From: Candidatus Latescibacterota bacterium
GTDB taxonomy: Bacteria > Latescibacterota > UBA2968 > UBA8231
Direction of reading: 5' to 3'
Assembly: GCA_965223905.1 (NCBI GenBank)
Contig: CBDCXV010000011.1
Span: 672,001-736,000, forward strand
Length of the DNA: 64,000 nucleotides
Shown: positions 7,171-50,831 of the stretch, in pieces
How positions within the stretch are numbered: position 1 is the stretch's first letter
Layout: each line of letters starts with the position of its first letter
Position numbers and translations under genes: made by a program
Notes under the pieces: model-generated
The model's database searches: none
What the model was told of the DNA's origin: nothing
Seen by the model: only the letters and a program-made list of their open reading frames with translations

Positions 7171-7516
7171 GTTGGCGCAGGTGGCCGCGGTCTTGGCGTC
7201 GGCAAACTGCTGACCATACCCCAGGTAATTATGAAACCGCCCACGCACGTCGCTGCCGTAGACCTGGAAGCTGGACCGTTGCAGGGTGCCGTCGCGGACC
7301 CGGTGCCACCAGGTAAACAATTGCTCGCTGACATCCAACAGCCGTTGGCCGACCCAGGCGGCCTCTTCGTCCCGGGTCACGAACTCCTCGAAGGTGCGCC
7401 GAAGATGAGCCCAGCACACTTGCCGGCGTCGCGGCGACAGATGTCCTTAGGCCGAATTTCAACTCCTGGTTCGATGTCTGGAGACGGACCTACCTCAAAA
7501 AGGAGGGTCTTCCTGA

Positions 7517-7795
7517 ATGCAAAACCTTTTTCTGTTGCTGGTCCTTATTTTGGCTGGCTCTGTCAGTCCGGGGGGATCCATATGCTGTCCCTTTCCCCTC
7601 CCTAACGGGCTTGAAGTGGGTGATCGTTGGACCTATTGGTGGAACTATCCGCATGGGCAGGACAGTTTAATCACCGTCGTTGGCAGCCACGAATTGGGGG
7701 AGCAGATTTATTTCTAATTGAATGACGGGGGCTTATACCGGGTAGATGAAGAGCATCGGACCTGGAAATACGATCCCATTTTGGAAAGCGAGGCG
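7517..7795 (+). pseudogene. divergent partner-protein (A-like) gene fragment fused to protease fragment
   Basis: Signal peptide plus LEVGDRWTY (cf. LAVGNSWTY); in-frame TAA at 7715-7717; runs directly into mid-protease sequence VHLIDRG at ~7795. Confidence 0.55.
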
Positions 7796-8941
7796 GTGCA
7801 CCTGATCGACCGAGGCCGTCACCGTCACCAGTATCTGCTGGAACGGCGTGCTCACGACGGAAGCGATGGGATCTCATTCGGCCGCTACCTCCTTTATCAT
7901 GAGTGCGACGAAGATCCGGGCCTTTTTATCTGGAGGCGCAGTACTACATATCCTGCAACTTGGCCCACACACCGCATCAGGGACGCCCAGGAACGTCGGC
8001 AACCGCTGCTGATCGTGGCCGACGATCGGCGCATCCGGGACGCGCGCGATAGCATGCCGAAGCGGAATATAGATATATACCAGGATATGCTCTTCGATCC
8101 GTTTCCGGTGGTGGGAACCACCACTTTTGTGATTGGGAGCACCACTTTTTCCCAGGGGCCGGTCGATGCGGTTTATTCCGACAGGGCCGACATCGGTCTG
8201 CGCCAGACCACTTCTAGCGGGAACTTTGATGGCGAGCAGGTGGACCCAGGGGAAGTCGGCTTGGCGATCACCAACATCACCCGCACCGAGGTCACGGGCA
8301 GGGCGGATCGGATCAGAGTGGACGTCATCTTTCTTCCCAGGGCTCCGGCCAACTTCACCGTGGAGGGGGGCGACGGGGCGGCCACCCTGCGCTTGGACGA
8401 TCCGGACGACTTCAGCCTCGATAGATGGGAGTATCAACAACAAGGCGGGAGCGACTGGGTGGAGATTCCCGTCGACGACGACCAATTGACCCGTGACGAG
8501 GCGACGGGGACCCTCTCGTATCCGGTGATGGGCCTGACCCACGGGGAGATGTACAGCTTCTAGGTGCGGGCGCACAACGCCGCGGGGTGGGGGCCGGCCG
8601 CGGGGCCGGTCGAGGTGACGCTCAACACGGCGCCGGAGGTCCTGGGTGACCGGAGTCCCTCGTTCGATGAGAACAGCGAGCAGCCGGTGGCCACGTACAC
8701 GGCCACCGACGCGGAAGGCGACGCGATCACGTGGTCCCTGACGGGGGCAGATTCCGCGGCGTTCGATCTCCCCGCCGACGCTACAGGCAATTCGTTTGAC
8801 CTTACGTTCGGGACGGCGCCGAACTACGAAAATCCGACCGATGCCAACCTGGACACGGTCTACGAGGTCACGGTGGTGGCCACCGACGACGGTATGCCGC
8901 CGCTGCCTGCGAACTATAGTAACAGGACCAGGTGCGCATGA
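7796..8941 (+). pseudogene. protease copy B0: 3' part of head + FN3 + cadherin-like; internal TAG
   Basis: Collinear with B2-B4 from VHLIDRG; GAG>TAG at 8561-8563; homology ends at DDGMPPLPA. Confidence 0.85.
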
Positions 8942-9010
8942 ATCACATCGGGCACCTGCGGTTTACAAATATTTCGTTAACGCGAACGATGGAAGAGAGG
9001 ATAAAGCATC

Positions 9011-9820
9011 ATGGAAACGAAGAAGATGATGATCAGCCTGACCCTGGCCGCCCTGCTCGGGCTGGGCGGGGCGCTGCCGGCCGCAGGCACCGACTATGCG
9101 GTTTCGGACTACCTGCCCCTGGCCGTGGGCAACTCCTGGACCTACGAACATTCTGTCGTTGGGAATCCACCTTACGATGACGATGAAAGGGACTTATGGG
9201 ACAGGACTCAATGGTCTACGTACACGGCACAATACCCTTCGATTCCCCAATTCACGATCACGGTGGAGCGCACCGAGGTGATCGACGGTAAGACCTATTT
9301 CGTGATCAGCGGCATGCCCGCCAACTGGCCGCCGGCGCCGCCGCATTTCATCGCCGGCAAGAAGCTGCGCTGGGAGGGCACCCACCTTATGGAACGCACC
9401 TCGGATGGAGAGCATGCGATCTTTCGCTTCGACGGCACTACCTCGACGATGGTCCCTTGGGAAGGAATGGATCTGTACGAGACGGAATACGCGATCCCGA
9501 CGGTAGAGGGGGACAATCAAGTCAAGGTGGTGGCGGGATGGGAACCGGTGCCATGGTATTCGTTCACGTTCTGGGGAAACGATGAAGGAGGGCGTGGGTG
9601 CGGCTTTCTTTGGGGGTATGGTTCCGGCGGATGCGGTTGGAGGATTAGCGGATCCGATGTTGCCATAGTATCCCAAAACCGTGTGGCTCCCCTTCGGGGG
9701 GTAATCGGCGGCAACCGGGTGGAATTTTCCGATGCGTTGATCCCCACCTCTTCGTCGTCCTCTTCCTGGGGCAGAATCAAGAATACGTTTTTCGCCCATG
9801 ACGGGAGGACCAGCCCATGA
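9011..9820 (+). CDS. secreted partner protein A1 (YLPLAVGNSWTY family, SWGxIK tail)
   Basis: Signal peptide, conserved blocks shared with A2-A4, tail PTSSSSSSWGRIKNTF; stop overlaps B1 start (ATGA). Confidence 0.85.
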   Translation: METKKMMISLTLAALLGLGGALPAAGTDYAVSDYLPLAVGNSWTYEHSVVGNPPYDDDERDLWDRTQWSTYTAQYPSIPQFTITVERTEVIDGKTYFVISGMPANWPPAPPHFIAGKKLRWEGTHLMERTSDGEHAIFRFDGTTSTMVPWEGMDLYETEYAIPTVEGDNQVKVVAGWEPVPWYSFTFWGNDEGGRGCGFLWGYGSGGCGWRISGSDVAIVSQNRVAPLRGVIGGNRVEFSDALIPTSSSSSSWGRIKNTFFAHDGRTSP

Positions 9821-10368
9821 GTCGCCCTTTCTTGTTCATCGCCCTCCTGCCGTTCCTCGGGGCGCACTCGGTCCTGGCCACTGGGTCCCCAGACACCTGG
9901 GATCGATCAATGACTCTGGACGTGGTCCTGGTCACATTTCAAGATGCGACCACGGCCAACCCCATGACCCCTATGTCCTGCGTGAGCAATAACACGCCTC
10001 AGGTATGTGATTATCATAACCATGACCTTCCCTACGGGTACAACGCGAATAGGGAGCCGTCGAGCTCAAGTTACCTGCTGCGGGACTTCGAGCGGCTTTT
10101 CAGTGGTGGCTACGGTACCCTGCCGGATTTTGTCGGGACCAGTCAGACGGTCGCCGATGACAACCATACGCTGCCGGAGGTGTTCGGCAGTGTGCGGGCC
10201 TACTTCGATTCCGTATCCAACGGGATGCTCGAACTGAACGTGCGCATGATCAATCCTGCTGATTCGCAGGGCAATCCCCGCTGGATCGAGCTGCCGCGCA
10301 CCAAAGCCGAATACGCCCGGATTACCATAAATAATCGAACAAGGCGGCCTGATGACGGGTACGCATGA
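9817..10368 (+). pseudogene. protease copy B1, truncated before the zinc site
   Basis: 183 aa matching the N-terminus of B2-B4 (TLDVVLVTFQD, FGSVRAYFDSVSNG); ends at the GCATGAATCAC junction. Confidence 0.85.
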
Positions 10369-10440
10369 ATCACACCAAGAGCGGACAGTTATCTCCTTTA
10401 AGGACAGTAATCAAAAATTAAAAGGACGGAGGAAAGCATC

Positions 10441-11250
10441 ATGGGAAAGAAGAAAATGATGGGCATTAGCCTGACCTTGGCCGCTCTGCTCGTAGCAAGC
10501 TGGGCGCTGCCGGCCGCAGCCACCGACTACGCGGCCTCGAACTACCTGCCGCTGGCCGTGGGCAACTCGTGGACCTACGGACATTCTGTCGTAGGGCTTA
10601 CGCCCTACGATGAGGATAAGAGCCATTGGCCTACGTACACGGCGCAGTTCCCTAAGAGACCCCAATTCACGATCACGGTGGAGCGCACGGAGGTGATTGA
10701 CAGCAAGACCTACTTCGTGATCAGCGACATGCCGGACCACTGGCCGCCGGCGCCGCCGCATTTCATCGTCGGCAAGAAGCTGCGCTGGGAAGGCACCCAC
10801 CTTATGGAACGCACCTCGGATGGAGAGCATGCGATCTTTCGCTTCGACGGCACTGCCTCGGACTACACTACCTCGACGATGGTCCCTTGGGAAGGAATGG
10901 ATCTGTACGAGACGGAATACGCGATCCCGACGGTAGAGGGGGACAATCAAGTCAAGGTGGTGGCGGGATGGGAACCGGTGCCATGGTATTCGTTCACGTT
11001 CTGGGGCAACGATGAAGGGGGGCGTGGATGCGGCTTTGTTTGGGGGTATGGTTCCAACGGATGCGGTTGGGGGATTAGCGGATCCGATGTTGCCGTGCTA
11101 TTCGAAAACGATGCGACTCCCCTTCGGGGGGTAATCGGCGGCAACCGGGTAGAATTTTCCGATGCGTTGATCCCCACCTCTTCGTCGTCCTCTTCCTGGG
11201 GCAGAATCAAGAATACGTTTTTCGCCCATGACGGGAGGACCAGCCCATGA
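10441..11250 (+). CDS. secreted partner protein A2
   Basis: Paralog of A1; 3' half nearly identical to A1; RBS GGAGG. Confidence 0.85.
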   Translation: MGKKKMMGISLTLAALLVASWALPAAATDYAASNYLPLAVGNSWTYGHSVVGLTPYDEDKSHWPTYTAQFPKRPQFTITVERTEVIDSKTYFVISDMPDHWPPAPPHFIVGKKLRWEGTHLMERTSDGEHAIFRFDGTASDYTTSTMVPWEGMDLYETEYAIPTVEGDNQVKVVAGWEPVPWYSFTFWGNDEGGRGCGFVWGYGSNGCGWGISGSDVAVLFENDATPLRGVIGGNRVEFSDALIPTSSSSSSWGRIKNTFFAHDGRTSP

Positions 11251-12272
11251 GTCGCCATTTCTTATGGATCGCCCTCCTGCCGTTCCTCGGGGCGCACTCG
11301 GTCCTGGCCACTGGGTCCCCAGACACCTGGGATCGATCAATGACTCTGGACGTGGTCCTGGTCACTTTTCAAGATGCGACCACTGGAACCGGGGTATATC
11401 ACTTGCACGACCGGCCCTACGGCACCAATCCCGGGGAGTCGGCCGATTCCATATACACGTTGCGCGACTTCGAGCGGCTCTTCAGTGGCGGGTACGGCGT
11501 CCTGCCGGATTTTGTCGGGACCAATCAGACGGTGGGTGACGGCCATGTGCTGCCGGAGGTTTTCGGCAGTGTGCGGGCCTACTTCGATTCCGTATCCAAC
11601 GGAATGTTCCAGTTGAACGTGCGCATGATCAATCCTGCTGACTCGGAGGGTTATCCCCGCTGGATCGAGCTGCCGCGCCCCAAGGCCGAATACGCCACGA
11701 TTATGATAAATGATCGAACCCGTCGGCCTGATGGAGGATTACGGGGGGATCTTTTCTGGGACGATGCCTACGAGACGGCGATGGACTCGGTGCGCTGCTG
11801 GAACCCTTCTTCGAACGTCCCGGGGGCAAACTGCGGGGTTTCGGCGATTTCCACGTACGCAATTACCGGAATCGGCCCTGGCGCCACCGTGGCTCAGCGA
11901 GTGGGGCACAAGGTGGCCTACCTGTATTCGGGAGCCACCTTCAAGGGGAGATCTCCTGCCGGTCTGCTGCATCCGAATGCCGATCTCCATACAGAGACCC
12001 ATCCGAGTAGTTCAGATGAAGTCGGTTACCGCTACGTGATGGGGGAGCGGGAGGGCAGCCATAACGATGACAACCGAACCATTGACGAGTTCGCTCCGAT
12101 TTACACCCATGCCCACGAAATCGGCCACCTGTTGGGGCTTTATCACGGTGGGGGCGGGGTAAGTGTTCCCAATCCGTACATGCCTGGCTCAACCTCTACC
12201 GCCCGGGGGGGGCAATATGCTCCACTGGGTGTTGATGCAAGGCAACGGAGCGGGGCCGGAAGTGATAAATAA

Positions 12273-13735
12273 GGCTATATCCGGATTCTTCAAAGGGCAT
12301 TTTATAGCGTTTACAGAGGGAGATTTCGAGGGTTTCACACTGTACGGAATCGGGCCGGAATCTGCGCCGGGATATCGAGGTCTCCGACACACAGATAAAT
12401 CAGGTCGGCAAAGGCATCCAGAGATTTAAATCCACTGGCGCGGTTCTTGAGCATGCGCACGACGCGGTTGAGGCCTTCGGCGGCGGCGTTGGTCAGGTGC
12501 GTACCGATGAAGGCGGTGATGCCGGCCGCCTGCTTTCGCACGGTGCCGACGAACCTGCGCAAGGGTTCCAGGCGGCTGCGCAGGGCCGCCGTCGTCCACT
12601 TCTTGAGGAAGCGTTCGGCGGCCCAGCGCGCCTTGTAGCGCCAGAAGTGCTCGAACTCGTCCTTCAGGCGCCAGGCGCGGTAGATGCGGCGGTTGGCCTT
12701 CTCCAGGGTTTGGAGCGTGCGCCGGTCCTTTCGCGAGCGCTGGGCGGAGTGATGCAGCAGCACCCAGCGCAGGCCCTTGAGCAGCTTGCGGTCCTCGCCG
12801 CAGGCTTGGCGCCACTGCTCCTTGCGCACCTCGTCGACGGCTTCGTTGAGGGCCTTGACGACGTGGAACCGGTCCAGGACCAACTCGGCGTTGGGACAGT
12901 GCCGGCCGATGGCGCCGATGAAGGTCTCGCTCAGGTCGCAGCAGGCCCAGCGGATGCGGTCCTTCTGGGAGGCGCTGAGATGGTCGCGGAAGAACGCGTC
13001 GATGGTTTCCCGTGCCTTGCCCTGGCCGACCCACACCACGCGGGAGCGTTCCAGGTCGTAGACCAGGGTGGCATATTTATGGCCCTTGGCGTAGGAGATC
13101 TCGTCGATGCCCACCGTCTTCAGCCCGCGGATGCGATGCCCCGTACGCCGGCGCTCGATGAGCCGGTGCAGCTGATCCGACAGCGTCGACGGGGCCAGAC
13201 CCAGCAGGCGTGCGGCGGCGGCCTGCGTCATCCACTGGCAGTAGGTCAGCAGCAGGTATTCGAAGCGGTAGCTGACCCGGGCCGAGCGCGCCGCCCAGGG
13301 GGCCTCCTCGAGGCGACGGCCGTGGGTAGGGCAGCGGATCTCCCGGGGGGCGTGGTGCAGCCACACGGTACGGCCGCCGACGCGGACATCGCGCCAGCGG
13401 CGGGGCTCCAGGACCTGAACGATGCGGCCCCGGAGCCCGCACTCGGGACAGCGGCAGCCGTTCTTTTGGGGCTTGACCTTGACGACGACAGCCGCTTCTT
13501 CCCCGCGTCCTTCGAACCACACGCTCACCGCGCGAAACCCCTTGAAGTTGAGCAGCTTGGAGACGAACTTCATAGCGGTCATAGGTCGCCTTCTCTCTTT
13601 CCCTTTGGGGAGTGCTTGATGGGGATACACCAAGCATAGGGAACGACCTATGGCCTTGTCATGTACTCAGAGGAACAGCAAAGGCTCAGGTACTGCCGTA
13701 CTTACGTTTCGGCGTTGAAAAACCCGGATAGAACC
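12273..13735 (-). mobile_element. complete ISL3-family element, 1463 bp
   Basis: Imperfect IRs GGCTATATCCGGATTCTTCAA / GGTTCTATCCGGGTTTTTCAA (rc); 8-bp TSD ATAAATAA at 12265-12272 and 13736-13743. Confidence 0.95.
12335..13582 (-). CDS. ISL3 family transposase
   Basis: CPECG/CPTHG zinc finger, GIDEISY..GHKYAT, CCDLS, LDRFHVVK, TNAAAEGLN. Confidence 0.95.
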   Translation of the reverse strand: MTAMKFVSKLLNFKGFRAVSVWFEGRGEEAAVVVKVKPQKNGCRCPECGLRGRIVQVLEPRRWRDVRVGGRTVWLHHAPREIRCPTHGRRLEEAPWAARSARVSYRFEYLLLTYCQWMTQAAAARLLGLAPSTLSDQLHRLIERRRTGHRIRGLKTVGIDEISYAKGHKYATLVYDLERSRVVWVGQGKARETIDAFFRDHLSASQKDRIRWACCDLSETFIGAIGRHCPNAELVLDRFHVVKALNEAVDEVRKEQWRQACGEDRKLLKGLRWVLLHHSAQRSRKDRRTLQTLEKANRRIYRAWRLKDEFEHFWRYKARWAAERFLKKWTTAALRSRLEPLRRFVGTVRKQAAGITAFIGTHLTNAAAEGLNRVVRMLKNRASGFKSLDAFADLIYLCVGDLDIPAQIPARFRTV

Positions 13736-15088
13736 ATAAATAACGGCTACCATACGCCCTACCGCTCCTGCCCCCCTCCAATCAATCCCTTCTACCAGTG
13801 GGACCTTGGGTGGATCACCCCGACCCCTATCACCGGATCCCAAGACAATTATGAAATAGAGCCCGGCACGGTGCAGCTTATCACCCGGGGCGATATCGAG
13901 TACCCTGCTGGAGCGTCGTTCGCACGATGGTCAAGGCCCCCCTCACGACAGCGGAAGAGGAATCTCATTCGGCCGCTACATCCTTTACCATGAGTACGCC
14001 GAAGATCCGGGTCTTTTTATCTGGAGGCGCAGTACTACATATCCTGCAACTTGGACCACACACCGCATCAATAACGCCCAGGAACGTCGGCAACCGCTGC
14101 TGATCGTAGCCGACGACCGTCGTATTGGCAACGCGCGCGATCAAGAACAAAACCCGAGTATACCCGAATACCAGGACATGCTGTTCGATCCTTTTCCGGT
14201 GGTGGGAACCACCACTTTTACGATTGGGAGCACCACTTTAACCCAGGGGCCGGTCAATGAGGTTTTTTCCGACAGGGCCGCCATCGGTCTGCGCCAGACC
14301 ACTTCTAGTGGGAACTTTGATGGCGAGCAGGTGGACCCCGGCGAGGTGGGGTTTGCGGTCACCGACATTACCCGCACCGAGGTCACGGGCAGGGCGGACC
14401 GGATCAGAGTGGACGTCATTCTTCTTCCCTCGGCTCCGTCGAACCTGACGGTGGCAGCCGGCGGCGGCGCGGCCATCCTGAGCTGGGACGATCCGGACGA
14501 CTTCAGCCTCGATAGATGGGAGTATCAACAACAGGGCGAGAGCGACTGGGTGGAGGTTCCCGTCGACGACGACCAATTGACCCGTGACGAGGCGACGGGG
14601 ACCCTCTCGTATCCGGTGATGGGTCTGACCCACGGGGAGATGTACAGCTTCGAGGTGCGGGCGCACAACGCCGCGGGGTGGGGGCCGGCCGCGGGGCCGG
14701 TCGAGGTGACGCTCAACACGGCGCCGGTGGTTTCAGGACCTGGAACCCCCTCGTTCGATGAGAACGGCGAGCAACCGGTGGCCACGTACACGGCCACCGA
14801 CGCACAGGAGGACGGGATCACCTGGTCGCTGACGGGGGCAGATTCCGCGGCGTTCGATCTCCCCACCGAGGCTACGGGCAATTCGTTTGACCTTTCGTTC
14901 CGGTCAGCGCCCGACTACGAGAATCCGACCGATGCCAACCTGGACACGGTCTACGAGGTCATGGTGGTGGCCACCGACGACGGTGTGCCGCCGCTGCCTG
15001 GGAGCTAACAGGAACAGATGCGCATGAATCACCCGGATCGGAGACCCTAAACTTTAACTCTTCAATTTGAACGATGGAGGAAAGCATC

Positions 15089-15838
15089 ATGGAAAAGAAA
15101 AAAATGATGGGCATCAGCCTGACTCTGGCCGTCCTGCTCGGTCTGGGCGGGGCGCAGCCGGCCGCGGCCACGGACTACCAAGCTTCGGACTACCTGCCCT
15201 TGGCGGTGGGCAACTCGTGGACCTACGAGCACGATTACTACGATCCAGGCATAGACGAAAGCCAATGGTCTGCATACACGGCTCAGTATCCCTCGGACCC
15301 TCAGTTCACGATCACGGTGGAGCGCACCGAGGTGATCGACGGCAAGACCTACTACGTGCTCAGCGACATGCCGGACCACTGGCCGCCGGCGCCGCCGCAT
15401 TTCATCGCCGGCAGGAAGCTGCGCTGGGAGGGCACCCACCTGATGGAGCGCACCTCGAACGGCGAGCAGGCGATCTTCCGCTTTGACGGGACGGACTACC
15501 AAGTCTCTACGGATGAGGGGGATTTCCAGGTCACGGTGAGAACGTCGTATTCAAATCCAGTACCAAAGTATGGTTTCGACTTTAATGGTGGAGTAGGGGG
15601 TGGAGTCCGATTCCTTGCGGGCTATGGTATCGAGAGAGCTGTTCAAATTCGCTTCAGTATCGATGTCACAACGTTCATTAACGAGGTAAGACCAGTCCGG
15701 GCGGTGATCGGGGGACGTCAGGTGGAACATGCCGACGCGGAGAAGACCCCGATCGACACCTCTTCCTCATCGTCTTCCTGGGGTGGGGTGAAGCAGACGT
15801 ATTTCGCCCATGCTCCTGAAGGGAGGACCAGCCGATGA
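15089..15838 (+). CDS. secreted partner protein A3
   Basis: Signal peptide, YLPLAVGNSWTYEH, tail SSSSSSWGGVKQTY. Confidence 0.85.
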   Translation: MEKKKMMGISLTLAVLLGLGGAQPAAATDYQASDYLPLAVGNSWTYEHDYYDPGIDESQWSAYTAQYPSDPQFTITVERTEVIDGKTYYVLSDMPDHWPPAPPHFIAGRKLRWEGTHLMERTSNGEQAIFRFDGTDYQVSTDEGDFQVTVRTSYSNPVPKYGFDFNGGVGGGVRFLAGYGIERAVQIRFSIDVTTFINEVRPVRAVIGGRQVEHADAEKTPIDTSSSSSSWGGVKQTYFAHAPEGRTSR

Positions 15839-18063
15839 GTCGCCCTTTCTTGTGCATCGCCCTCCTGCCGGTGCTCTGGGCGTATTCGGCTGAGGCCGCC
15901 GGGTCAGCTTTTACCGGGAGGGCGTCTACTACCGCAGAGACGTTCCCCTGTACGCTGGACGTGGTGCTGGTCACTTTTCAAGATGCGACCACCGGAAGCG
16001 GGAATTATCACTTGTATGACCGGCCTTACGGCACCAACCCCGGGGAACCGGCCGGTTCCAGCTACACGCGGAGCGACTTCGAACGGTTGTTCGTCGGGGA
16101 CACGGTCACCGTGGCAGGCGGCCATGTGCTGCCGGAGGTGTTCGGCAGTGTGCGCGCCTATTACGACTCCGTATCCAACGGGGACTTCGAGCTGAACGTG
16201 TGCATGATCAACCCGGCCGGTGAGGACGGCTATCCCCGCTGGATCGAGCTGCCGCACACCAAGGCCCACTATGCCGAGATAACCAGCATTCCTCTTAGCA
16301 GAACGCACCAAGAATTCTTCGACGAGCTCTACGACACGGGGATGGACTCGGTGCGCTGCTGGAACCCTACGCCATTTCCAACCGATCCTGACCCGCCGAC
16401 CTGCGGGAGGAATTCAGCGGTAACCGGGTACGCCATAACCGACATCGGCCCTGACAACTCCGTGGATCAGCGGCTGCGCCACAAGGTGGTCTACCTGTAT
16501 TCCGGTGCCACCTTTAAAGGCAGAGATCCCGCCGGCCTGCTGCATCCGCAAGCGGACTTGCATACCCGGACCAATCCGAGCCGATCATCTCACGTCGGCT
16601 ACCGCTACGTGATGGGGGAGCGGGAGGGCAGCCACCGGAATGAAAACCGCAGCATTGACGAGTTCGCCCCGATTTACACCCACGTTCACGAAATCGGTCA
16701 TTTGCTGGGCCTCCCTCACGGCGGGGGTAAGGTGAGTGGCTCCAACCCCAATCCTTACGTGCCTGGCACGAACTATGCAACTCCCAAGGGGGCCAATCTG
16801 CTGGAATGGACCTTGATGCAAGGCAACGGGTCCGGGCCGGAAGTGGAAGAAAACGGCTACCATACGCCCTATCGCTCCTGTCCCAATCCGATTAATCCCT
16901 TTTATCTGATGGACTTGGAATGGATTGACCCGCCCACCCCTATCACCGAATCCCAGGACAATTTCGAAATAGGGCCCGGGACGGTACACCTGATCGACCG
17001 GGGACGTCACCAGTATCTGCTGGAACGGCGTTCCCACGACGGAAGCGATGGAATCTCATTCGGCCGCTACATCCTTTTTCACGAGTTCCAAGAGGATCCG
17101 GGTCTTTTTATCTGGCGACGAAGAACCTTTGCAACCCAACCGCTGCTGATCGTGGCCGACGGCCGGCGCATCCGGAACGCGCGCGATCAAGAACAAAACC
17201 CGAATATCCCCGAATACCAGGACATGCTTCTTCGATCCATTTCCGGTTGAAGCTACCCCTGTGACGGGAGGGAGCGTCAATTTTACCCAGTCGGCGGTCG
17301 ATGCGGTTTATGACAACATGGCCGACGTCGGTCTGCGCCAGACGACGGAGAATGAAGATCCCCCGGGGGATGCTGGTCGCCAAACAGATCCCATGGAGGT
17401 GGGTGTGGGTTTTGCGCTCACCAACATCACCCGCACCGATGTCACGGGCAGGGCGGATCGGATCAGGGTGGACGTCACTTTTCTTCCCAGGGCTCCGGCC
17501 AACCTCACCATAGAAGCCGGCGACGGCTCGGCCATCCTGCGCTGGGACGATCCGGACGACTTCACCCTCGATAGATGGGAGTATCGGCAGGGCGGGGGCG
17601 GCTGGGTGGAAGTTCCCGTCGACGACGACCAATTGATCCGCGTCGAGGCGACGGGAACCTTCAGGTATCCGGTGGACGGTCTGACCAACGGGGAGATGTA
17701 CAGCTTCGAGGTGCGGGCGCACAACGCCGCGGGGTGGGGCCGGTGGCGGGGCCTGTCGAGGTGACGCTCAACACGGCGCCGGTGGTTTCAGGTCCTGAGA
17801 CCCCCTCGTTCGATGAGAACAGCGAGCAGCCGGTGGCCACGTACACGGCCACCGACGCGGACGGAGACGCGATCACCTGGTCCCTGACGGGGGCGGATTC
17901 GGCGGCGTTCGATCTCCCCACCGACGCTACAGGCAATTCGTTTGACCTTTCGTTCGGGACGGCGCCGAACTACGAGCAACCGGCCGATGCCAACCTGGAC
18001 ACGGTCTACGAGGTCACGGTGCAGGCCACCGACGACGGTATGCCGCCGCTGCCTGCGAGCTAA
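15835..18063 (+). pseudogene. M6-like metzincin protease copy B3 (head + FN3 + cadherin), two frameshifts (possibly sequencing errors)
   Basis: HVHEIGHLLGLPH, WTLMQG; extra T at ~17229 and G4 instead of G5 at 17736-17739; ends DDGMPPLPAS*. Confidence 0.85.
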
Positions 18064-18143
18064 CAGGACCAAGTGCAGCATGAATCACATCGGGCACCTG
18101 CGGTTTACGAATATTTCGTTAACGCGAACGAAGGAGGAGCAAC

Positions 18144-18908
18144 ATGGAAGCGAAGAATAAAATGAACATCAGCCTGACCCTGGCCGTCCTGCTCGGACTC
18201 GGCTGGGCGCTGCCGGCCGCGGCCACCGACTATGCGGTTTCGGACTACCAGCCGCTGGCCGTGGGCAACTCGTGGACCTACGAGCATTCTCACTCTGGCC
18301 TGGATAGAAGCCAATGGTCCGCTTACACCGCACAGTTCCCTAGGACACCCCAGTTCACGATCACGGTGGAGCGCACCGAGGTGATCGACGGCAAGACCTA
18401 CTACGTGATCAGCGACATGCCGGACAACTGGCCGCCGGCTCCGCTGCTTTTCATCGCCGGCAGGAAGCTGCGCTGGGAGGGCACCCACCTGATGGAGCGC
18501 ACCGGGGACGGCGAGCAGGCGCTCTTCCGCTTTCCCGCCGAGACGGACTACGAGGTCTCAACGGACGAAGGGCTTATTGAGGTCTCGGGGCTCATGTGGA
18601 GCAGTCATCCTGTGCCGTTATATACGTTCGAATATCCTGTTCCCAGCCTGGTGGGGGGAATAGGGGGAAGCGGGTTCCTTGCGGGGTATGGCATGGATGG
18701 ATGCGGTGATGAAATCTTCTCAATCGATGTCCCCCTATTTGGAAACGGTGTATTTGCGATCCGGGCGGTGATCGGGGGGCGTCAGGTGGAATATGCCGAC
18801 GCTTGGAGGGGGAGGACCCCGATCGACACCTCTTCCTCATCGTCTTCCTGGGGTGGGGTGAAGCAGACGTTGTTCTCCCATGCTCCTGAAGGGAGGAACA
18901 GCCGATGA
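18144..18908 (+). CDS. secreted partner protein A4
   Basis: Signal peptide, YQPLAVGNSWTYEH, tail SSSSSSWGGVKQTL. Confidence 0.85.
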   Translation: MEAKNKMNISLTLAVLLGLGWALPAAATDYAVSDYQPLAVGNSWTYEHSHSGLDRSQWSAYTAQFPRTPQFTITVERTEVIDGKTYYVISDMPDNWPPAPLLFIAGRKLRWEGTHLMERTGDGEQALFRFPAETDYEVSTDEGLIEVSGLMWSSHPVPLYTFEYPVPSLVGGIGGSGFLAGYGMDGCGDEIFSIDVPLFGNGVFAIRAVIGGRQVEYADAWRGRTPIDTSSSSSSWGGVKQTLFSHAPEGRNSR

Positions 18909-21900
18909 GTCGCCCTTTCTTGTGTATCGCCCTTCTGCCGCTGCTCTGGGCGAGTTCTGTTGAGGCTGCCGGGTCGCGGAATACTTGGAGATCCCCCACT
19001 ACCCTGGACGTGGTGCTGGTCACTTTTCAAGATGCGACAACTGGAACCGGGGTTTATCACTTGCACGACCGGCCCTACGGCACCAACCCCGGGGAGCCGG
19101 CCGACTCCAGCTACACGTTGCGCGACTTCGAGCGCCTCTTCAGTGGCGGGTACGGCGTCCTGCCGGATTTTGTCGGGACCAATCAGACGGTGGGTGGCGG
19201 CCATGTGCTGCCGGAGGTGTTCGGCAGTGTGCGGGCTTACTTCGACTCCGTATCCAACGGGATGTTCCAGTTGAACGTGCGCATGATCAACCCGACCGAT
19301 GAGGACGGCTATCCCCGCTGGATCGAGCTGCCCGAAACCAAGGCCCACTATGCTGAGATCTCCAGCACTTTAAGTAGACGCCGAACTTTCTTTAATGGAC
19401 TCTACGCCACGGCGATGGACTCGGTGCGCTGTTGGAACCCTACGCCATTTCCAACCGATCCTGACCCGCCAACCTGCGGGAGGAATTCAGCGGTAACCGG
19501 GTACGCCATTACCGACATCGGCCCTGACAACACCGTGGCTCAGCGGCGGCGCCACAAGGTGGTCTACCTGTATTCCGGTGCCACCTTCAAGGGAAGATCT
19601 CCTGCCGGCCTGCTGCATCCGCAAGCGGATTGGCACACAAGGACCACCCCGGGTATGGCCGACGACGTAGGTTACCGCTACGTGATGGGGGAGCGGGAGG
19701 GCAGCCATCGGAATGACAACCGAACCATTGACGAGTTTGCTCCGATTTTCACCCATGCCCACGAAATCGGCCACCTGTTGGGCCTCTACCACGGCGGGGG
19801 TTTGAAGAACGGACCTAATCCGTACATGCCTGACTCAACCTATATGAATGACGGGGCGGCCAACCTGCTGGACTGGGGTTTGATGCAAGGCGACGGAGCC
19901 GGGCCGGTAGTGGTAAACAGGGGCTATCATTCGGTCTATCGCTCCTGTCCCAATCCGATTAATCCCTTCTATCTGATGGACTTGGAGTGGATCGACCCGA
20001 CCGAGGTCATCGAGATCATTGGGAATCAGGACGACTACGAAATAGCGCCCGGGACGGTGCACCTGATCGACCGGGGCGCTCACGAGTATCTGCTGGAACG
20101 GCGTGCTCACGACGGGATAGACGGGATCTCATTCGGCCGCTACCTCCTTTATCATGAGTACGACGAAGATCCGGGTCTATTTATCTGGCGGCGTGAGACA
20201 TTGCCTAGATCCACGACTGCCCGAGAACGTGCGCAACCGCTGCTGATCGTGGCCGACGGCCGGCGCATCCGGGACGCGCGCGATAACGAGCCGACCCGGG
20301 ATATACATCGATACCAGGATATGCTCTTCGATCCGTTTCCGGTGGTGGGGGACACCACATTTATGATTGGGACCACCACCTTCACCCAGGGGCCGGTCAA
20401 TGAGGTTTATGACAACATGGGTGGCGCCGGTCTGCGCCAGACGACAGCTACCGGGAGGGATGGCGGTGAGCAAACAGATCCCATGGAGGTGGGTTTTGCG
20501 CTCACCAACATCACCCGCATCGATGTACCCGACGGGGCGGATGAGATCACGGTGGACGTCATCTTTCTTCCCAGGGCTCCGGCCAACCTCACCGTGGAAG
20601 CCGGCGATGGCTCCGCCATCCTGACTTGGAACGATCCGGACGACTTCACCCTCGATAGATGGGAGTATCGGCAGGGCGGGAGCGGCTGGGTGGAGGTTCC
20701 CGTCGACGACGACCAATTGATCCGCGTCGAGGCGACGGGGACCCTCTCGTATACGGTGATGGGCCTGACCAACGGGGAGATGTACAGCTTCGAGGTGCGG
20801 GCGCACAACGCCGCGGGGTGGGGGGCGGGCTCGGGACCTTTCGAGGTGACCCTCAACACCGCGCCGGAGGTCATGGGTGAGGCAAGTCCCTCGTTCGATG
20901 AGGACAGCGAGTCGACGGTGGCCACGTACACGGCCACCGACGCGGAAGGGGACGCGATCACGTGGTCGTTGACGGGGGCGGATGCCGCAGCTTTCAGCCC
21001 GCCCTCCGACGCAACGGGCAATTCGTTTGACCTTTCGTTTCGGTCACCGCCGAACTACGAGAATCCGACCGATGCCAACCTGGACACGGTCTACGAGGTC
21101 ACGGTGGTGGCCACCGACGACGGTATGCCGCCGCTGGATGCGAGTTATCCGGTGACGGTGCCCTTGAACAACGTCGACGAAGAGGGCACGGTGACTTTGT
21201 CCACGACTACGCCCCTGGTGGGTCATCCGTTGGGGAGCGCGCTCGGTGAACCGGATGGGGGCGTGACCGATCTCCGGTGGCAGTGGCAGCGCCGGTTGAG
21301 TGGTACGAAGAGGTGGGAAGACGTCTCTTCGAGCCGGGCCCGGTCCGAGGAATTCCATCAAGGGCAGGGGTATACGCCGAAACCGGGGGATGTGGGGTAT
21401 GAACTGCGGGCGACGGTCGGCTATACCGACGTGCATGGCCCGGGCAAGAGGGCGCAGAGCCCCGAGTCCGCCCCGGTGGTGGACGTGCCTTCGGCGCCTC
21501 GGAACCTGGAGGCGGCTGCGGGGAACGCCCGGGTGGATCTGAGGTGGGATCCGCCGCTCACCGACAACGGTTCGGCGCTGAGGGGGTATGGGTATCGCTA
21601 CGGCAGCGGCGGCAGTTGGACCCCGGGGACTCTGGGGCTGACGCCGAGTCACACGATCGATCAGTTGACCAACGGCACGGCCTACACCTTCGAGCTATGG
21701 GCGGTCAACGGGGCGGGGAACAGCGACCCCACCTCGGTGACGTCGACGCCGCTTGGAGTTCCCGACCCGCCGGTATTGAGCGTGGAGGAGGGGGACGGCC
21801 GGGTGCGGCTGCGGTTTGTACTGGGGTCGGACAACGGGTCGGGGATCACGCGCCGGGACACGCGGGTGTATCGCCTGGTCGACGGGGCCAGGCTGTGGCC

Positions 21901-22282
21901 GTTCGGTGAGCTGTGGTTCGAGACGGCCGTCGACCCGAGCTCGTCGGATTACCCGCGTCGGTTCACCTCGGGGTACAGCGAGGGCTGGCAGGGTTTGACC
22001 AACGGGTTGGAGTACACCTTCGAGGTGCGGACGGTCAACGAGGTGGGGACCAGTGCCCTCGCCCGGGTCACGGCCACGCCCCGGGGGTCTCCTCCTCCCC
22101 GGCCGGTGACGGTCACCTACGGGGCGTCGTCCTACGCGGCGCAGGAAGGGGGCGAGGCGGCGACGGTGCGGCTTTCGGCGCCGGCGTCTCAGGCGCTGCG
22201 CATCCCGATTGCGGTCAATCCCCCGTCGGGGGACTACAGCCGTGATCCGGGCAGCGGCCACCCCTTGTCCTTCTCCCGTTGA
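18905..22282 (+). CDS. M6-like metzincin protease B4 with FN3, cadherin-like and further FN3 domains; 3' end apparently cut by IS remnant
   Basis: Uninterrupted 1125 aa; HAHEIGHLLGLYH, WGLMQG, PINPFY; FN3 (GLTNGxxYxFEVRA) x3; breaks off within a repeat also found in the 25121 protein. Confidence 0.9.
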   Translation: MSRPFLCIALLPLLWASSVEAAGSRNTWRSPTTLDVVLVTFQDATTGTGVYHLHDRPYGTNPGEPADSSYTLRDFERLFSGGYGVLPDFVGTNQTVGGGHVLPEVFGSVRAYFDSVSNGMFQLNVRMINPTDEDGYPRWIELPETKAHYAEISSTLSRRRTFFNGLYATAMDSVRCWNPTPFPTDPDPPTCGRNSAVTGYAITDIGPDNTVAQRRRHKVVYLYSGATFKGRSPAGLLHPQADWHTRTTPGMADDVGYRYVMGEREGSHRNDNRTIDEFAPIFTHAHEIGHLLGLYHGGGLKNGPNPYMPDSTYMNDGAANLLDWGLMQGDGAGPVVVNRGYHSVYRSCPNPINPFYLMDLEWIDPTEVIEIIGNQDDYEIAPGTVHLIDRGAHEYLLERRAHDGIDGISFGRYLLYHEYDEDPGLFIWRRETLPRSTTARERAQPLLIVADGRRIRDARDNEPTRDIHRYQDMLFDPFPVVGDTTFMIGTTTFTQGPVNEVYDNMGGAGLRQTTATGRDGGEQTDPMEVGFALTNITRIDVPDGADEITVDVIFLPRAPANLTVEAGDGSAILTWNDPDDFTLDRWEYRQGGSGWVEVPVDDDQLIRVEATGTLSYTVMGLTNGEMYSFEVRAHNAAGWGAGSGPFEVTLNTAPEVMGEASPSFDEDSESTVATYTATDAEGDAITWSLTGADAAAFSPPSDATGNSFDLSFRSPPNYENPTDANLDTVYEVTVVATDDGMPPLDASYPVTVPLNNVDEEGTVTLSTTTPLVGHPLGSALGEPDGGVTDLRWQWQRRLSGTKRWEDVSSSRARSEEFHQGQGYTPKPGDVGYELRATVGYTDVHGPGKRAQSPESAPVVDVPSAPRNLEAAAGNARVDLRWDPPLTDNGSALRGYGYRYGSGGSWTPGTLGLTPSHTIDQLTNGTAYTFELWAVNGAGNSDPTSVTSTPLGVPDPPVLSVEEGDGRVRLRFVLGSDNGSGITRRDTRVYRLVDGARLWPFGELWFETAVDPSSSDYPRRFTSGYSEGWQGLTNGLEYTFEVRTVNEVGTSALARVTATPRGSPPPRPVTVTYGASSYAAQEGGEAATVRLSAPASQALRIPIAVNPPSGDYSRDPGSGHPLSFSR

Positions 22283-22365
22283 CGATCCCGGTTCTTTGGT
22301 CGAAGGAGAGGCCTGAACCATCGTCGCGTCCATGATAGTACCCTCCCTGACCAGCAAACCCCGGT
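22265..22365 (-). mobile_element. IS5-family transposase remnant
   Basis: Minus strand reads GLLVREGTIMDATMVQASPSTK/NRDRQRE, matching the IS5 'GTIVDAT...PSSTKN' motif. Confidence 0.7.
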
Positions 22366-22429
22366 ACGAGGGTCGGGACTCCCGGTGCATCCAGGGGGAT
22401 CGAGCTGGTGATCTGCTATGTGTGAGGTG

Positions 22430-22678
22430 TGTCGCAAAATGCGACTCGCGTTCCAAATTGCAACACATTCCCCGTCCTGCTTCTTATTCTTTTCTATAAC
22501 TTATTGATAAACAAACAGTTGCAGTTTCTTCTGCCACAGGGCATTCGGTCTTCGGAGCGATGTACGTGTCGCATTCTGCAACGCTTCCCCAAATCTTGCA
22601 AGGAGACTCACATACGATATAACTCTTGCATTTGCAATAAGTTAGTCCGCTTTCTAACAGATTGGCACAGGATTTGCA
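22430..22678 (+). promoter_or_regulatory. sigma54 promoter module 1 (UAS palindromes, IHF site, -24/-12)
   Basis: TTGGCACAGGATTTGCA at 22662-22678; IHF-consensus TAACTTATTGATA at 22497-22509; palindromic TGTCGCAAAATGCGAC at 22430 and related site at ~22567. Confidence 0.85.
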
Positions 22679-22741
22679 GACAAGTCTTGATATGCAAGAC
22701 TCTTCCCGTCGCTGCTGAACGATTGAGGAGAGGAAAACACC

Positions 22742-22900
22742 ATGGAAACGAAAAGATGATGGAAACGAAAAAGATGATCAGCCTGACCCTGGCCGAGCTG
22801 CTCGCAGTGAGCTGGGCCTGGGGGGCCGTAGCTGCCGACTGTGAGGCCGCGGACTACCTGCCGCCGGCCGTGGGCAACTCGTGTATTTACAAAGATTCTG
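22742..22900 (+). pseudogene. degenerate 5' fragment of partner protein (A5)
   Basis: METKKMISLTLAELLAVSWA...DYLPPAVGNSCIY then loses homology; start region tandemly duplicated (ATGGAAACGAAAA(A)GATG x2). Confidence 0.75.
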
Positions 22901-23203
22901 CCCATTCGGCCATTGGGGATACCAAGGCTGCCCAGGCGGGGCTGATTCTGGAGACGTACGCGGATTCAGCCGGTGACCTCGCCGAGGCGCCGCCGGCAGG
23001 GGTGATCCTGAAAGGCGGTCAGATCGACAGCAGCACGGTGGAGGTGGGCGCCTTTGATGACTCCCTCCTGAATGAAGGAGGAAAAATGAGGCTCCTCCGG
23101 AGAATCTGTGGGTTGAGGAGGGGAGGCCTTGACGATGGGGATAGAGGGTCGAGACGGCCTGCGCGTCGAGGGGATCGATGCGGGATCCCCAATGCGTGAG
23201 GAC

Positions 23204-23452
23204 TGTCGCAAAATGGGACATTCGTTGAAAAATGCGACACATTCCCCGTCCCGTCTCCGAATATTTCCTATAACTTGTTCAAAAACTTACAGTTGAAGTC
23301 TCCCCGCAACAGGGCATTCGGTCGTCGGGCGCGATGGGCGTGTCGCATTTTGAAACACTTCCCGAAATTTTGCCAGGAAACCCACATACGATATAACTCC
23401 CGCATATACCGTATGTTAGTCTGTTTTCAAAAAAATTGGCACAGAATTTGCA
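23204..23452 (+). promoter_or_regulatory. sigma54 promoter module 2 (diverged duplicate of module 1)
   Basis: TTGGCACAGAATTTGCA at 23436-23452; TGTCGCAAAATGGGACA at 23204; collinear with 22430-22678. Confidence 0.8.
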
Positions 23453-24129
23453 AACCGGATCTTAACAAGCAGGGAGGGTACAGCGCGCCCGAACCCGGTG
23501 ATCTACGGATAGGAGAGGTAGGCGCCCAATAGCAGAGATAAAGGGGGCAAGGGGGGATATTTTTGCTCCCAAACAAATTTAGGTATTGGTATTGACAAGG
23601 GCATATTGGCGGGGTTTCTTGTACGGGCCAAGCGAAACCCTTCGCAGTTAGGCGCAATTAAACTTAGGGCGCGGTGTGTAGCGAATGATGGAGTGGGTTT
23701 TGGCAGCGGCGAAGGCGTCCTGTGCTCGTGCACTTCCCCGCGCTCATGCAAAAGGGCCCGAATCACGTAAGCGGTGGCGGTGTCTGGACGCTTGTTTTGG
23801 CAACCAGAGGGTCATCTTGTGTGCGATGATATCAGTAGAGTAGTCCATAACTTGGGACGTGAAATTCAGATGCTTGCCCCGGTACCCATAGGAGGCTATT
23901 CGATGAAATGTCGTGGGATGAGATTGCCAATGTTCATGCTCGTTTTTTGGTTGGCTATTCAGCCGCTGTGGCCGTCCATGAAATCGATGAGCCCGATTCT
24001 CTCCGGTTATTTACTTTGGCGAAGGAGATAATGATGGGAATATTCACATGGGTAGAAATTTTGAGAATACAGCCTACGTACATATGAAATAATAAGCCAA
24101 TGGCGTATTTGCGTGAAAGGAGAAGCATC

Positions 24130-25086
24130 ATGGTGAAACGAATGATGGCTTTTGCACTTCTGAACTGGATTGTTGCTGTTCTGCTGCTGGTCGGCCTGCC
24201 TTCCTGGGGACATGAACCCGACGGGGTGGTCTACGAGGCGTTCGAGTGGCCTCCCGGCATGGAGCCTGTGATTGACGGCGTCGAGGAGCAGTGGTGGCTT
24301 TCTGAGTACGTCATTCCAATCTCGCGGAGCCGAAACGAGGAGGGTGAATTTGCCGACACCACAAACAGCACGGTGTACTCCGAGATTCTGGTGAGCTGGA
24401 GCGACGCCACCAACCGGCTCTACATCATGGAATGGCGATTCGACGATTCATGGACCGAGGGGGATCTATTTCTCCTGAAGCTGGATGGAGATCATGGCGG
24501 CGAGCAAATCTGGTACAGTCCGAAAGAATACGGAGACGCCCGTAGCGATGGATGGAGCAATCGCTACGGCCAGATGTACGCGGTGGAAGTTCCCGAATAC
24601 GGCGAGAGGAACCTGTCCCACTTCACCCCGGCCACCTGGCACATCGAGCACATTGACATCGCGTATTCGTATCCCCGCATAGGGGCGACCATTGGATGGC
24701 CATCCCATTTCGATTTCACTTCGCCGCTGTACATCGAGTCAAGTTGGGTCCTGTGGGATGTTTTCAGATGGAATAACCCGGAAGAGTCCGTCGTCACGGA
24801 CCTGGAAGAGGGCAAGATCATCGGCCTCGGATGGCACCATGTCGACGTGGACGAGAACGATCCCAACATATCCACTGTATGGAGAAGCAGTGGGTGGAAT
24901 GCGGAGATCGATTCGTGGGAATACTTCATAACCGGCGCGACCCTTTCTGATTTTCTGCTTGTGCGAGAAGACATTTTCTATGGCCATACGTTCTGCTTCC
25001 AAGATTGCCCTGACGATGGGTATGAACCCTCCGTTGTAGCTAAGCGATCCTTGGGCGCTATCAAACATTCGTTCCCGGTTCCATAA
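24130..25086 (+). CDS. secreted protein, possible CBM9-like sugar-binding fold, SLGAIK tail
   Basis: Signal peptide; EPVIDG..EQW, LYIMEWRFDD, LEEGKIIGL..VDVD pattern; C-terminal VAKRSLGAIKHSF. Confidence 0.7.
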   Translation: MVKRMMAFALLNWIVAVLLLVGLPSWGHEPDGVVYEAFEWPPGMEPVIDGVEEQWWLSEYVIPISRSRNEEGEFADTTNSTVYSEILVSWSDATNRLYIMEWRFDDSWTEGDLFLLKLDGDHGGEQIWYSPKEYGDARSDGWSNRYGQMYAVEVPEYGERNLSHFTPATWHIEHIDIAYSYPRIGATIGWPSHFDFTSPLYIESSWVLWDVFRWNNPEESVVTDLEEGKIIGLGWHHVDVDENDPNISTVWRSSGWNAEIDSWEYFITGATLSDFLLVREDIFYGHTFCFQDCPDDGYEPSVVAKRSLGAIKHSFPVP

Positions 25087-50824: not shown

Positions 50825-50831
50825 AGCAGTC

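Follow-up and report, generated by a model that had tools for sequence, protein, structure and literature searches.

In the serralysin systems (AprA-AprI and Serratia protease-SmaPI), the gene for an exported beta-barrel inhibitor lies beside that of a secreted zinc protease with an HExxHxxGxxH motif, an arrangement thought to protect the periplasm; AprI, an 8-stranded barrel, inserts its N-terminus. In polymorphic toxin-immunity cassettes, a variable C-terminal toxin is followed by its immunity gene, and orphans lacking the N-terminal part lie downstream. In Tannerella forsythia, as far as the cited passages go, potempin genes lie immediately upstream of the genes of six KLIKK peptidases of different classes, which are type IX secretion system (T9SS) cargo. 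The paired genes overlap at their stop and start codons or are no more than 5 bp apart and are co-transcribed, and the potempins, outer-membrane lipoproteins of 98-132 residues with five-stranded oligonucleotide/oligosaccharide-binding (OB) or eight-stranded up-and-down barrels, inhibit the peptidases by wedging loops into the active-site cleft (PMC9890683). The same passages describe Tannerella as the only holder of this design, in which an inhibitor gene lies upstream of the gene for a T9SS protease (PMC9890683). Here we analysed a 64,000-nt stretch (hereafter the window) of a Candidatus Latescibacterota genome (assembly GCA_965223905.1, contig CBDCXV010000011.1, positions 672,001 to 736,000), which carries a tandem array of gene pairs encoding a small secreted protein, A, and a metalloprotease-like protein, B. 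From sequence comparison and structural modelling, we judge the pair to be a candidate protease with a co-encoded cognate cap, based on a new protein family in little-studied phyla.

The array occupies the + strand from 7.5 to 22.3 kb of the window (Table 1), which has a G+C content of ~0.63. Its four A genes (A1-A4; 254-269 amino acids (aa)) are all open and intact and share 55-70% identity over their full length in a tblastn search with A4 as the query, and in all four pairs the A stop codon overlaps the B start codon as ATGA, with a GGGAGGA ribosome-binding site ahead. Direct DNA repeats form families of 3-5 copies that are 60-96% identical to the reference copy. The units start 3044-3099 nt apart, apart from a short unit 1 (1415-1433 nt) and a spacing of 6091 nt that comprises unit 1 and unit 2 including its insertion sequence (IS). 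An initial annotation made from the letters of the window had listed four A-B units with intact A genes, ATGA overlaps and signal peptides, at a spacing of ~3.1 kb, and the open reading frames (ORFs), tblastn matches, junctions, direct repeats and N-termini as read from the sequence bore out each of these points. Pairwise synonymous divergence (dS) between the paralogues was 0.17-0.66 for A and 0.36-0.74 for the B heads; the copies are old paralogues. The ratio of non-synonymous to synonymous divergence (dN/dS) was 0.39-0.54 for A and 0.30-0.44 for the B heads, indicating that both genes have been under purifying selection for most of their divergence. Within A, the ratio was 0.20-0.43 in the N-terminal half versus 0.50-0.87 in the C-terminal half.

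Successive units are separated by spacers of ~70-80 nt between the end of B and the next A (8942-9010, 10369-10440, 15009-15088 and 18064-18143), and all four contain a GCATGAATCAC element and a ribosome-binding site. A scan of positions 7000-25200 for sigma-70 promoters and terminators gave counts at or below the shuffle expectation; therefore, the array may be read as one transcript. Scanning the window for Rfam families and tRNAs gave no hits.

To our reading of the retrieved loci, the pair is not peculiar to this window. A search with the A profile yielded 28 loci, 25 from Latescibacterota/Latescibacteria, 2 from Gemmatimonadota/Gemmatimonadetes and 1 from Saprospiraceae (a 19-residue match only). 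The A hidden Markov model (HMM) hit 51 ORFs of these loci, and the removal of 11 that covered <60% of the profile left 40 full-length A proteins. A B start lay directly downstream on the same strand for 21 of the 40, with a complete head in 12 cases and a stub or frameshifted head in 9; the concern raised in the initial annotation, that A homologues might mostly occur without B, was thus not borne out. At 17 of the 18 B starts in the loci, the A stop codon overlaps or abuts the B start, mostly as ATGA or TGATG and once by abutting, behind GGAGG. A followed by B is a conserved, translationally coupled and co-inherited module in metagenome-assembled genomes of Latescibacterota and Gemmatimonadota. 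A and B-head distances over 13 pairs were correlated (r 0.82, reached by 4 of 5000 permutations), a result that speaks for co-inheritance as a unit only, not for binding. Literature searches found no paper describing this A-B pair, in agreement with the earlier remark that a described system with this architecture was not recognised, and a search of PMC12993501 for passages on proteases and inhibitors gave none of relevance.

The A proteins not followed by a B start precede another A (6 cases), a second type of M6-like giant protease (2), an S8 subtilase (2, one via a 171-aa ORF), a B start cut by an IS66 element (1), an M9 collagenase 516 nt away (1), a WD40 protein (1) or nothing relevant (6). 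A maximum-likelihood tree built from 44 A sequences places the A proteins linked to S8 enzymes and to the second-type M6-like enzymes in a deep clade of their own (8 rows, support 99/95), apart from those linked to the type-1 B heads of the array. We had considered that A might stand upstream of three protease classes (M6-like, S8 and M9), and the M9 link was dropped; the A protein of locus L008 nests in the type-1 clade. Large S8 subtilases with a deep-clade A or a small ORF bearing the C-terminal tail of A (described below) upstream were seen in L023 (9938-15054), L019 (8469-13767) and L026 (9659-16948), and one of the three has a T9SS-type C-terminal domain. These cases hint that the layout of a small partner plus a protease extends beyond M6-like enzymes. 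The small ORFs upstream of the S8 genes in L026 and L019 were not matched by the A profile (hhalign probability <5%), and in L026 only the tail motif aligned.

Protein A is a Sec-exported all-beta protein of ~225 residues belonging to an undescribed family. Its N-terminus, read from the sequence as a signal peptide, has a charged start and a hydrophobic stretch and ends in ..PAAA before TDY, a cleavage site lacking a lipobox cysteine; it is therefore not a lipoprotein, and ~225 residues remain in the mature form. Pfam and NCBIfam assigned no family to A1-A4, and among 45 members of the A alignment, Pfam at E<=5 hit just 2, through FlgD_ig, EF-hand or dockerin domains at the C-terminus. Neither A4 alone nor the A profile matched a PDB sequence. 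A word-indexed search returned 257 proteins matching A4, and the A profile matched 290 clusters (50% identity) among 1.84 billion representatives, 212 of them at E<=1e-10; the family is small and lineage-restricted. A search for fused forms of A (446-2000 aa) gave none, a negative of little weight. A DUF3108_like lead from the ESM Atlas (0.76) was judged too weak, the best score there (0.89) being that of a 'hypothetical protein' cluster. The A4 model is all-beta with ~13 strands (predicted local-distance difference test (pLDDT) 70, predicted template-modelling (TM) score (pTM) 0.63), with residues 1-34 and 229-254 disordered, and a Foldseek search with it returned no PDB chain at E<=1e-3. Conservation, as the mean majority-residue frequency, was 0.82 for residues 28-135, 0.62 for residues 136-225 and 0.82 for the Ser-rich and WGxxK tail.

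The residues of an active zinc protease are present in protein B. The B4 zinc motif HEIGHLLGLYH comprises H286, E287, H290 and H296, and these four residues, together with M327, are invariant in 27 aligned heads, which gives a metzincin-type HExxHxxGxxH signature. Pfam recognized FN3 domains and a weak cadherin match in B and nothing else; the Pfam family Peptidase_M6 (PF05547) matched neither B4 nor B3 and reached only a distant relative in L018 (21 bits versus a cutoff of 22). The NCBIfam M6 domain TIGR03296 gave 27.2 bits for B4 and 34.9 bits for B3 (E 3e-6 and 1.5e-8), below its cutoff of 110.8. In a PDB profile search, the zinc motif was aligned solely to karilysin, serralysins and ADAMTS. 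The top Foldseek match of the B4 head model (pLDDT 69, pTM 0.78) was the zymogen of Bacillus anthracis InhA2 (4yu6; E 3.6e-4, probability 0.99, TM 0.42/0.34, root-mean-square deviation 12-13 A), at that query pLDDT of 69. We therefore regard B as a probable distant relative of the M6/InhA-like secreted zinc metalloproteases, for which 'M6-like' is a fair name even at scores below the curated M6 cutoffs.

Behind the head, B varies. The upstream B copies end in ..PPLPAS or ..PPLPGS and a stop codon exactly at the repeat junction, and the intact relatives P0122, P0123, P0125 and P0126 (752-770 aa, 64-87% identical) end in the same way, indicating that the short B (head, FN3 and cadherin-like domain) is an inherited gene form and not a recent accident. 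The relative P0124 (1529 aa) is 79% identical to B4 over residues 1-856 and then continues for ~400 residues beyond the B4 stop; the counterpart of its tail is found in the window at 28282-29798 (78-81% identity), behind the head of the second-type gene. By this comparison, B4 is incomplete, with a whole head and without the C-terminal tail of P0124. Neither B4 nor the short B forms end in a T9SS sorting domain. The 50 matching B relatives (618-1969 aa), like those in the loci, have highly varied tails, and several end in a T9SS-type C-terminal domain (P0127, P0139, P0140 and the B of L006).

We modelled the B4 head (residues 25-555, 27-row alignment) together with mature A4 (residues 28-254, 45 rows). 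The complex score was 0.79, and it was 0.00 for all three controls; the 0.79 mark is reached by 116 of 157 solved complexes and by 2 of 215 mismatched pairs, counts that are rough here, with our own alignments in use. Three runs shared at least 77% of the contacts, and the partner pLDDT was at least 80. Because A has no PDB relative by sequence or fold (E<=1e-3), recall of a solved complex is unlikely. The model supports, rather than shows, that A4 binds the B4 head. On the B side, the modelled interface consists of the loops 143-168, 210-211 and 233-254 and of residues 286-287, 290 and 295-296, and thus takes in the zinc-site residues H286, E287 (catalytic), H290 and H296 (the third histidine). 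On the A side, the variable C-terminal half contributes 33 of the 42 interface residues. Mean conservation was 0.48 for the A interface versus 0.74 for mature A, and 0.51 for the B interface versus 0.63 for the head. The interface residues being the least conserved in both proteins, each paralogous pair is probably matched. A1 and A2 carry an insertion of 19-25 residues, and the 152-168 loop of their partners B1 and B2 is 6-8 residues longer than that of B3 and B4; this loop lies within the modelled interface, and the insertion lies just before the A contact region, which begins at A4 residue 150.

The interpretation we favour, with a confidence that is evenly balanced, is that A may be a cognate inhibitor or latency partner that caps the active site of its B through its variable half. 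Coupled translation would produce A and B in fixed proportion, and the two would meet after export. The variable C-terminal half of A would then bind the protease head and cover the catalytic zinc site, so that the capped enzyme would stay latent, or the producer's envelope would be shielded, until release of the protease, which for forms with a sorting domain would proceed through the T9SS. A would thus act as potempins do on KLIKK proteases, on a different fold. The initial annotation had named A a cognate inhibitor, immunity or chaperone protein; the inhibitor option fits the conserved pair and the modelled complex over the zinc motif.

Several observations weigh against a capping role. The complex score is a model's own confidence, from which binding and inhibition are inferred, and the single-chain models are of middling confidence (pLDDT 70 for A and 69 for the B head). 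The nearest folds of A are LolA/LppX/YmcC-like lipoproteins, including a putative lipoprotein (4fvs), and fatty-acid-binding proteins (best E 3e-3, TM 0.31/0.35, range ~0.2-0.35), which are not protease inhibitors, and neither a potempin nor AprI is among the 50 listed Foldseek matches. A also differs from the potempins in size, being about twice as large, and in not being a lipoprotein. Its conserved N-terminal half makes 9 of the 42 modelled contacts, which leaves the strong conservation of that half unexplained. A type-1 B is missing directly downstream of 19 of the 40 full-length A proteins, A-only runs occur in L019 and L021, and distant A relatives stand near S8 subtilases (in L023, and in L019 via the 171-aa ORF), which a zinc-site cap does not obviously explain. 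The loci were sampled via A and cover the share of A genes with B, not that of B genes without A.

Two other roles for A have to be weighed against these data. A could be a prodomain or foldase acting in trans, which would make B competent for folding or export, cover the active site transiently and then be degraded, instead of persisting as an inhibitor. No propeptide is evident in B, in which the first conserved beta-strand of the head (..TLDVVLVTF) follows ~10 residues after the predicted signal-peptide cleavage site; in addition, the structure closest to B is a zymogen (4yu6), translational coupling would provide 1:1 synthesis, and an interface at the zinc site is expected of a prodomain as well. 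However, intact A genes persist beside B genes that are dead or reduced to stubs, in this array as well as in 9 pairs of the other loci, which would be odd for a dedicated foldase, and some A relatives have a T9SS-type C-terminal domain of their own (P0068, P0076, P0108 and one in L008), so that we regard this role as rather unlikely. An accessory function without inhibition, as a carrier, anchor or substrate recruiter with a LolA-like open barrel, would make the zinc-site contact a modelling artefact. The best Foldseek matches (putative lipoproteins, the YmcC-like fold, LppX and LolA) point this way, as do the A genes without a type-1 B and the A-only arrays, and the Ser-rich [ST]WGx[IVLM]K tail, which occurs on unrelated small secreted proteins and is replaced in P0068, suggests a localization role independent of B. 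These fold matches are weak, however (TM ~0.3), the complex score separated the pair (0.79) from all three controls (0.00) with H286, E287, H290 and H296 in the interface, and the interface falls on the co-varying and least conserved parts of both proteins; we consider an accessory role unlikely.

The array itself could in principle be a product of assembly, by repeat mis-assembly or as a strain chimera. B3 owes both of its frameshifts to 1-nt indels, of which one sits in a G run, and the second-type gene shifts frame in or near a 306-bp repeat of 99% identity. Against this, the dS between copies is 0.17-0.85 and each copy shows a different set of lesions, the IS comes with inverted repeats as well as a target duplication, relatives on other contigs have the ..PPLPAS unit end in intact genes, and the flanking housekeeping genes read through. 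The old divergence excludes a collapsed or duplicated assembly, and with the distinct lesions of each copy it answers the mis-assembly concern voiced in the initial annotation; we hold an artefact to be extremely improbable. The proposal that the locus is a library of variant protease heads concerns its use rather than its reality. A working recombination library would comprise [A + head] cassettes upstream of one sorting-domain gene, swapped as matched inhibitor-enzyme units; gene conversion or unequal crossing-over would vary the specificity or antigenicity of a surface protease, and the cognate cap would travel along. P0124 hints at such exchange, being a mosaic of a type-1 head (79% identical to B4) joined to a tail that is found here behind the second-type head (78%), and so do a patch of 93% identity between B2 and B4 and the variability of the interface residues, which are the most variable in both proteins. 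However, of the four upstream B copies three are dead, no sorting domain is present on B4, the reading frame of the second-type gene shifts three times, and no recombinase or other switching device was seen in the window. A working library is thus quite improbable, and the earlier suggestion of one is not supported. Capping of B by its cognate A remains the reading that we prefer for the pair.

Tandem duplication of [A + B residues 1-748] gave rise to the array, which in this genome is now eroding by IS insertion, deletion, nonsense mutation and frameshifts. Lesions in B were mapped by tblastn with B4 and by alignment. B0 is 5'-truncated and has an in-frame nonsense mutation (GAG>TAG at 8561-8563). 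B2 is cut by an ISL3-family IS, whose transposase matches the Pfam family DDE_Tnp_ISL3 (E 1.5e-66) and which has inverted repeats of 24 nt (12270-12293 and 13715-13738) and a target duplication of 8 bp (ATAAATAA, at 12265-12272 and 13736-13743); past the IS, residues 337-395 lie in another frame and are followed by residues 396-758, with one further frameshift near 13904. The frame of B3 is broken twice, by 1-nt frameshifts near 17229 and 17736, and for the second, which sits in a G run, an assembly error is possible. A 300-nt patch of B2 (11343-11642) is 93% identical to B4 (19001-19300), versus 75-85% for neighbouring parts of the units, which suggests gene conversion between non-adjacent copies.

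These data also qualify how the initial annotation described the damage. It had called most B copies truncated or disrupted, and the lesions are real, but the short end is an inherited form shared with intact relatives of 752-770 aa; B4 does have an intact head but is not whole, given the ~400 further residues of P0124. Of the partial unit placed at 7517, the B part (B0) is present, but the assignment of the 66-aa ORF to A is insecure, its score against the A profile being 3.5 bits. The A remnant starts at 22759 and not at 22742, and its first 51 residues match the A profile (E 4.5e-17). The idea that immunity genes outlive their toxins has little force within the window: from 4 point lesions in ~6.3 kb of B, ~2 would be expected in the 3.1 kb of A, zero were found, and the probability of this outcome is ~0.13; two broken A-like pieces (7517 and 22759) are present. 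Survival of A beside a damaged B does recur elsewhere, with 9 intact A genes beside a stub or frameshifted B and 1 beside an IS-cut B. An intact A with a short N-terminal B stub was seen in L003, L014, L017, L022, L027 and L002, and L003 has a tandem A-stub-A-stub arrangement like unit 1. In L027, an IS66 transposase (8480-10000, - strand), 63% identical to that of the window, interrupts B just past its start, and the A ahead of it is intact.

Table 1. Features of the A-B array and its surroundings, in coordinates of the 64,000-nt window
Feature	Position (nt)	Strand	Description
IS66-family transposase	5606-7111	-	Left flank; Pfam DDE_Tnp_IS66 (E 1.5e-33), zf-IS66, DUF6444
Second IS66 copy	~7135-7450		Fragment; antisense ORF 7135-7605 resembles that of 5771-7162
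66-aa ORF	7517-7717	+	Signal-peptide-like start; stop, then B-like sequence; A identity doubtful
B0	7796-8941	+	5'-truncated, B4 residues 385-748; tblastn match 7796-8917, 75% identity
A1	9011-9820	+	Intact, 269 aa; A HMM E 6e-131
B1	9817-10368	+	N-terminal stub, head residues 1-160; unit 1 ~1430 nt
A2	10441-11250	+	Intact, 269 aa
B2, 5' part	11247-12272	+	Head residues 1 to ~341-346, cut by IS
ISL3-family IS	12273-13735	-	Transposase 12335-13633
B2, 3' part	13736-15008	+	Residues ~337-758; FN3 and cadherin-like domain
A3	15074-15838	+	Intact, 254 aa from 15074; likely start by alignment 15089
B3	15835-18063	+	Full short form (head, FN3, cadherin-like), frame broken twice
A4	18144-18908	+	Intact, 254 aa; used for structure and complex models
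B4	18905-22282	+	1125 aa, open; signal peptide, M6-like head, FN3, cadherin-like, more FN3, partial Calx-like
A remnant	22759-22914	+	Signal peptide and first ~50 residues, similarity then stops
Secreted 328-aa protein	24100-25086	+	Ends ..SLGAIKHSFPVP (related tail); 34 nt upstream of second-type gene
Second-type M6-like giant gene	25121-32682	+	Motif HEYGHIMGLPELYD, FN3, Calx-beta, T9SS type A sorting domain at end

The locus does not end at 22900, where the initial annotation had closed it, and continues to 32.7 kb. From the B4 stop, the G+C content drops to 0.55-0.56 over 22283-26000, compared with 0.58-0.70 around it; this low-G+C stretch contains the A remnant and a CBM9-like gene, and, set against the arrangement implied by P0124, it may represent a rearrangement or an insertion. 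The product of this gene, the secreted 328-aa protein, resembles CBM9 in its language-model features (score 0.96 to clusters with CBM9_1), and no homology to the A profile was detected (hhalign probability 1.7%). The second-type gene lies in four successive frames (25121-26722, 26548-30321, 30243-32096 and 31795-32682), which are the result of three frameshifts or assembly errors, and it contains a 306-bp tandem repeat (4.0 copies, 99% identity) at 30806-32027. Its head scores 78.1 bits with TIGR03296, below the cutoff of 110.8. Its end (31795-32682) scores 33.5 bits with TIGR04183 (cutoff 23) and matches PF13860 (E 1.2e-9), which identifies it as T9SS cargo. Relatives of this gene were seen in L018 (3286-8082) and L025 (11426-19855). 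Outside the locus, housekeeping genes (PolX, RecG, MurG, Bat/MoxR and a GldA/F/G-like ABC system) read through. A Bat/VWA/MoxR-DUF58 cluster and a GldA/GldF/GldG-like ABC set (ABC_tran, ABC2_membrane and ABC_transp_aux in Pfam) occupy 49034-63303 on the - strand; in Bacteroidota, ABC sets of this type are associated with gliding and the T9SS.

A separate observation concerns the C-terminus of A. Nearly all A proteins end in a tail, often Ser/Thr-rich, consisting of [ST]WGx[IVLM]K and 3-17 further residues, and 8 small ORFs that do not match the A profile also carry it, always at the C-terminus. Among 2097 ORFs, the motif had 46 matches, 45 of them no more than 40 aa from the C-terminus, versus means of 0.43 and 0.07 in shuffled sequences. 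It is found in the last 10-40 residues of A1-A4, in the 328-aa protein of the window, and in L026 (10131-10664), L008 (2689-3348), L015 (7965-9038), L018 (18797-19468 and 19470-20147), L020 (13375-14286) and L024 (11346-12167, - strand). P0068 has a dockerin-like and a T9SS-type domain in place of the tail. We know of no description of this tail, which may be an undescribed sorting or docking signal common to unrelated secreted proteins of these phyla.

If A acts as modelled, it would be the founder of a structurally new family of proteins that inhibit zinc proteases, with no Pfam model and no solved relative. The family would go together with large, adhesin-like proteases of the M6 type, in phyla whose biology has hardly been studied by experiment. 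The design of an inhibitor ahead of a T9SS protease would then have had a second, independent origin within the superphylum, with another fold. The variable and co-varying interface would offer a natural collection of pairs, both matched and mismatched, in which inhibitor specificity could be studied. For annotation, a recurrent 'hypothetical protein' gains a name and a test, and its conserved C-terminal tail motif is flagged.

Among the described systems, the Rhs/CDI (contact-dependent inhibition) toxin-immunity loci resemble the array in their tandem diverged cassettes and in a partner that is often intact beside a broken effector. However, the partner here lies upstream, the variable part is an N-terminal head with its own signal peptide, the copies lose C-terminal and not N-terminal parts, and toxin delivery domains are absent; the toxin-immunity analogy of the initial annotation therefore fails on gene order and on the end that varies. 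InhA (MEROPS M6, 4yu6) is the best structural match of B, and both are large multidomain secreted zinc proteases, but B scores below the curated cutoff, type-1 heads have a third histidine, and InhA has a propeptide of its own, the 4yu6 entry being a zymogen. We know of no separate partner gene for InhA, and literature searches found none. The serralysins share with the A-B pair an exported inhibitor encoded next to an HExxHxxGxxH zinc metalloprotease, whereas the gene order and the secretion route (type I secretion) differ and no homology was detected; AprI inserts its N-terminus, whereas the modelled contacts of A come from the C-terminal half. The PDB entries 1jiw and 1smp turned up as protease matches only.

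The potempin/KLIKK system, which the initial annotation had rightly named as an analogue, is the closest by function. In both, as far as the cited passages on Tannerella go, the gene for a small secreted beta-protein lies directly upstream of that for a secreted peptidase, with overlapping or near-abutting codons; both have several paralogous or non-homologous pairs per genome, and both belong to the world of T9SS cargo. Blocking of the cleft would also be common to the two, shown for potempins and predicted for A by the model. A shared sorting-type segment stands beside differing mature parts in each case, the signal peptide in potempins and the C-terminal WGxxK tail in A. Unlike the potempins described in those passages, A has ~225 mature residues, no lipobox cysteine and ~13 strands, and it shows no sequence match to them, with no potempin among the listed Foldseek matches. 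The KLIKK families listed in the abstract do not include M6-like enzymes, and B has no KLIKK motif; in addition, the pairs here form a tandem array with pseudogenes in a different phylum. The two systems are thus analogous rather than homologous, and potempins and their KLIKK peptidases provide the closest functional counterpart to the A-B pair (PMC9890683).

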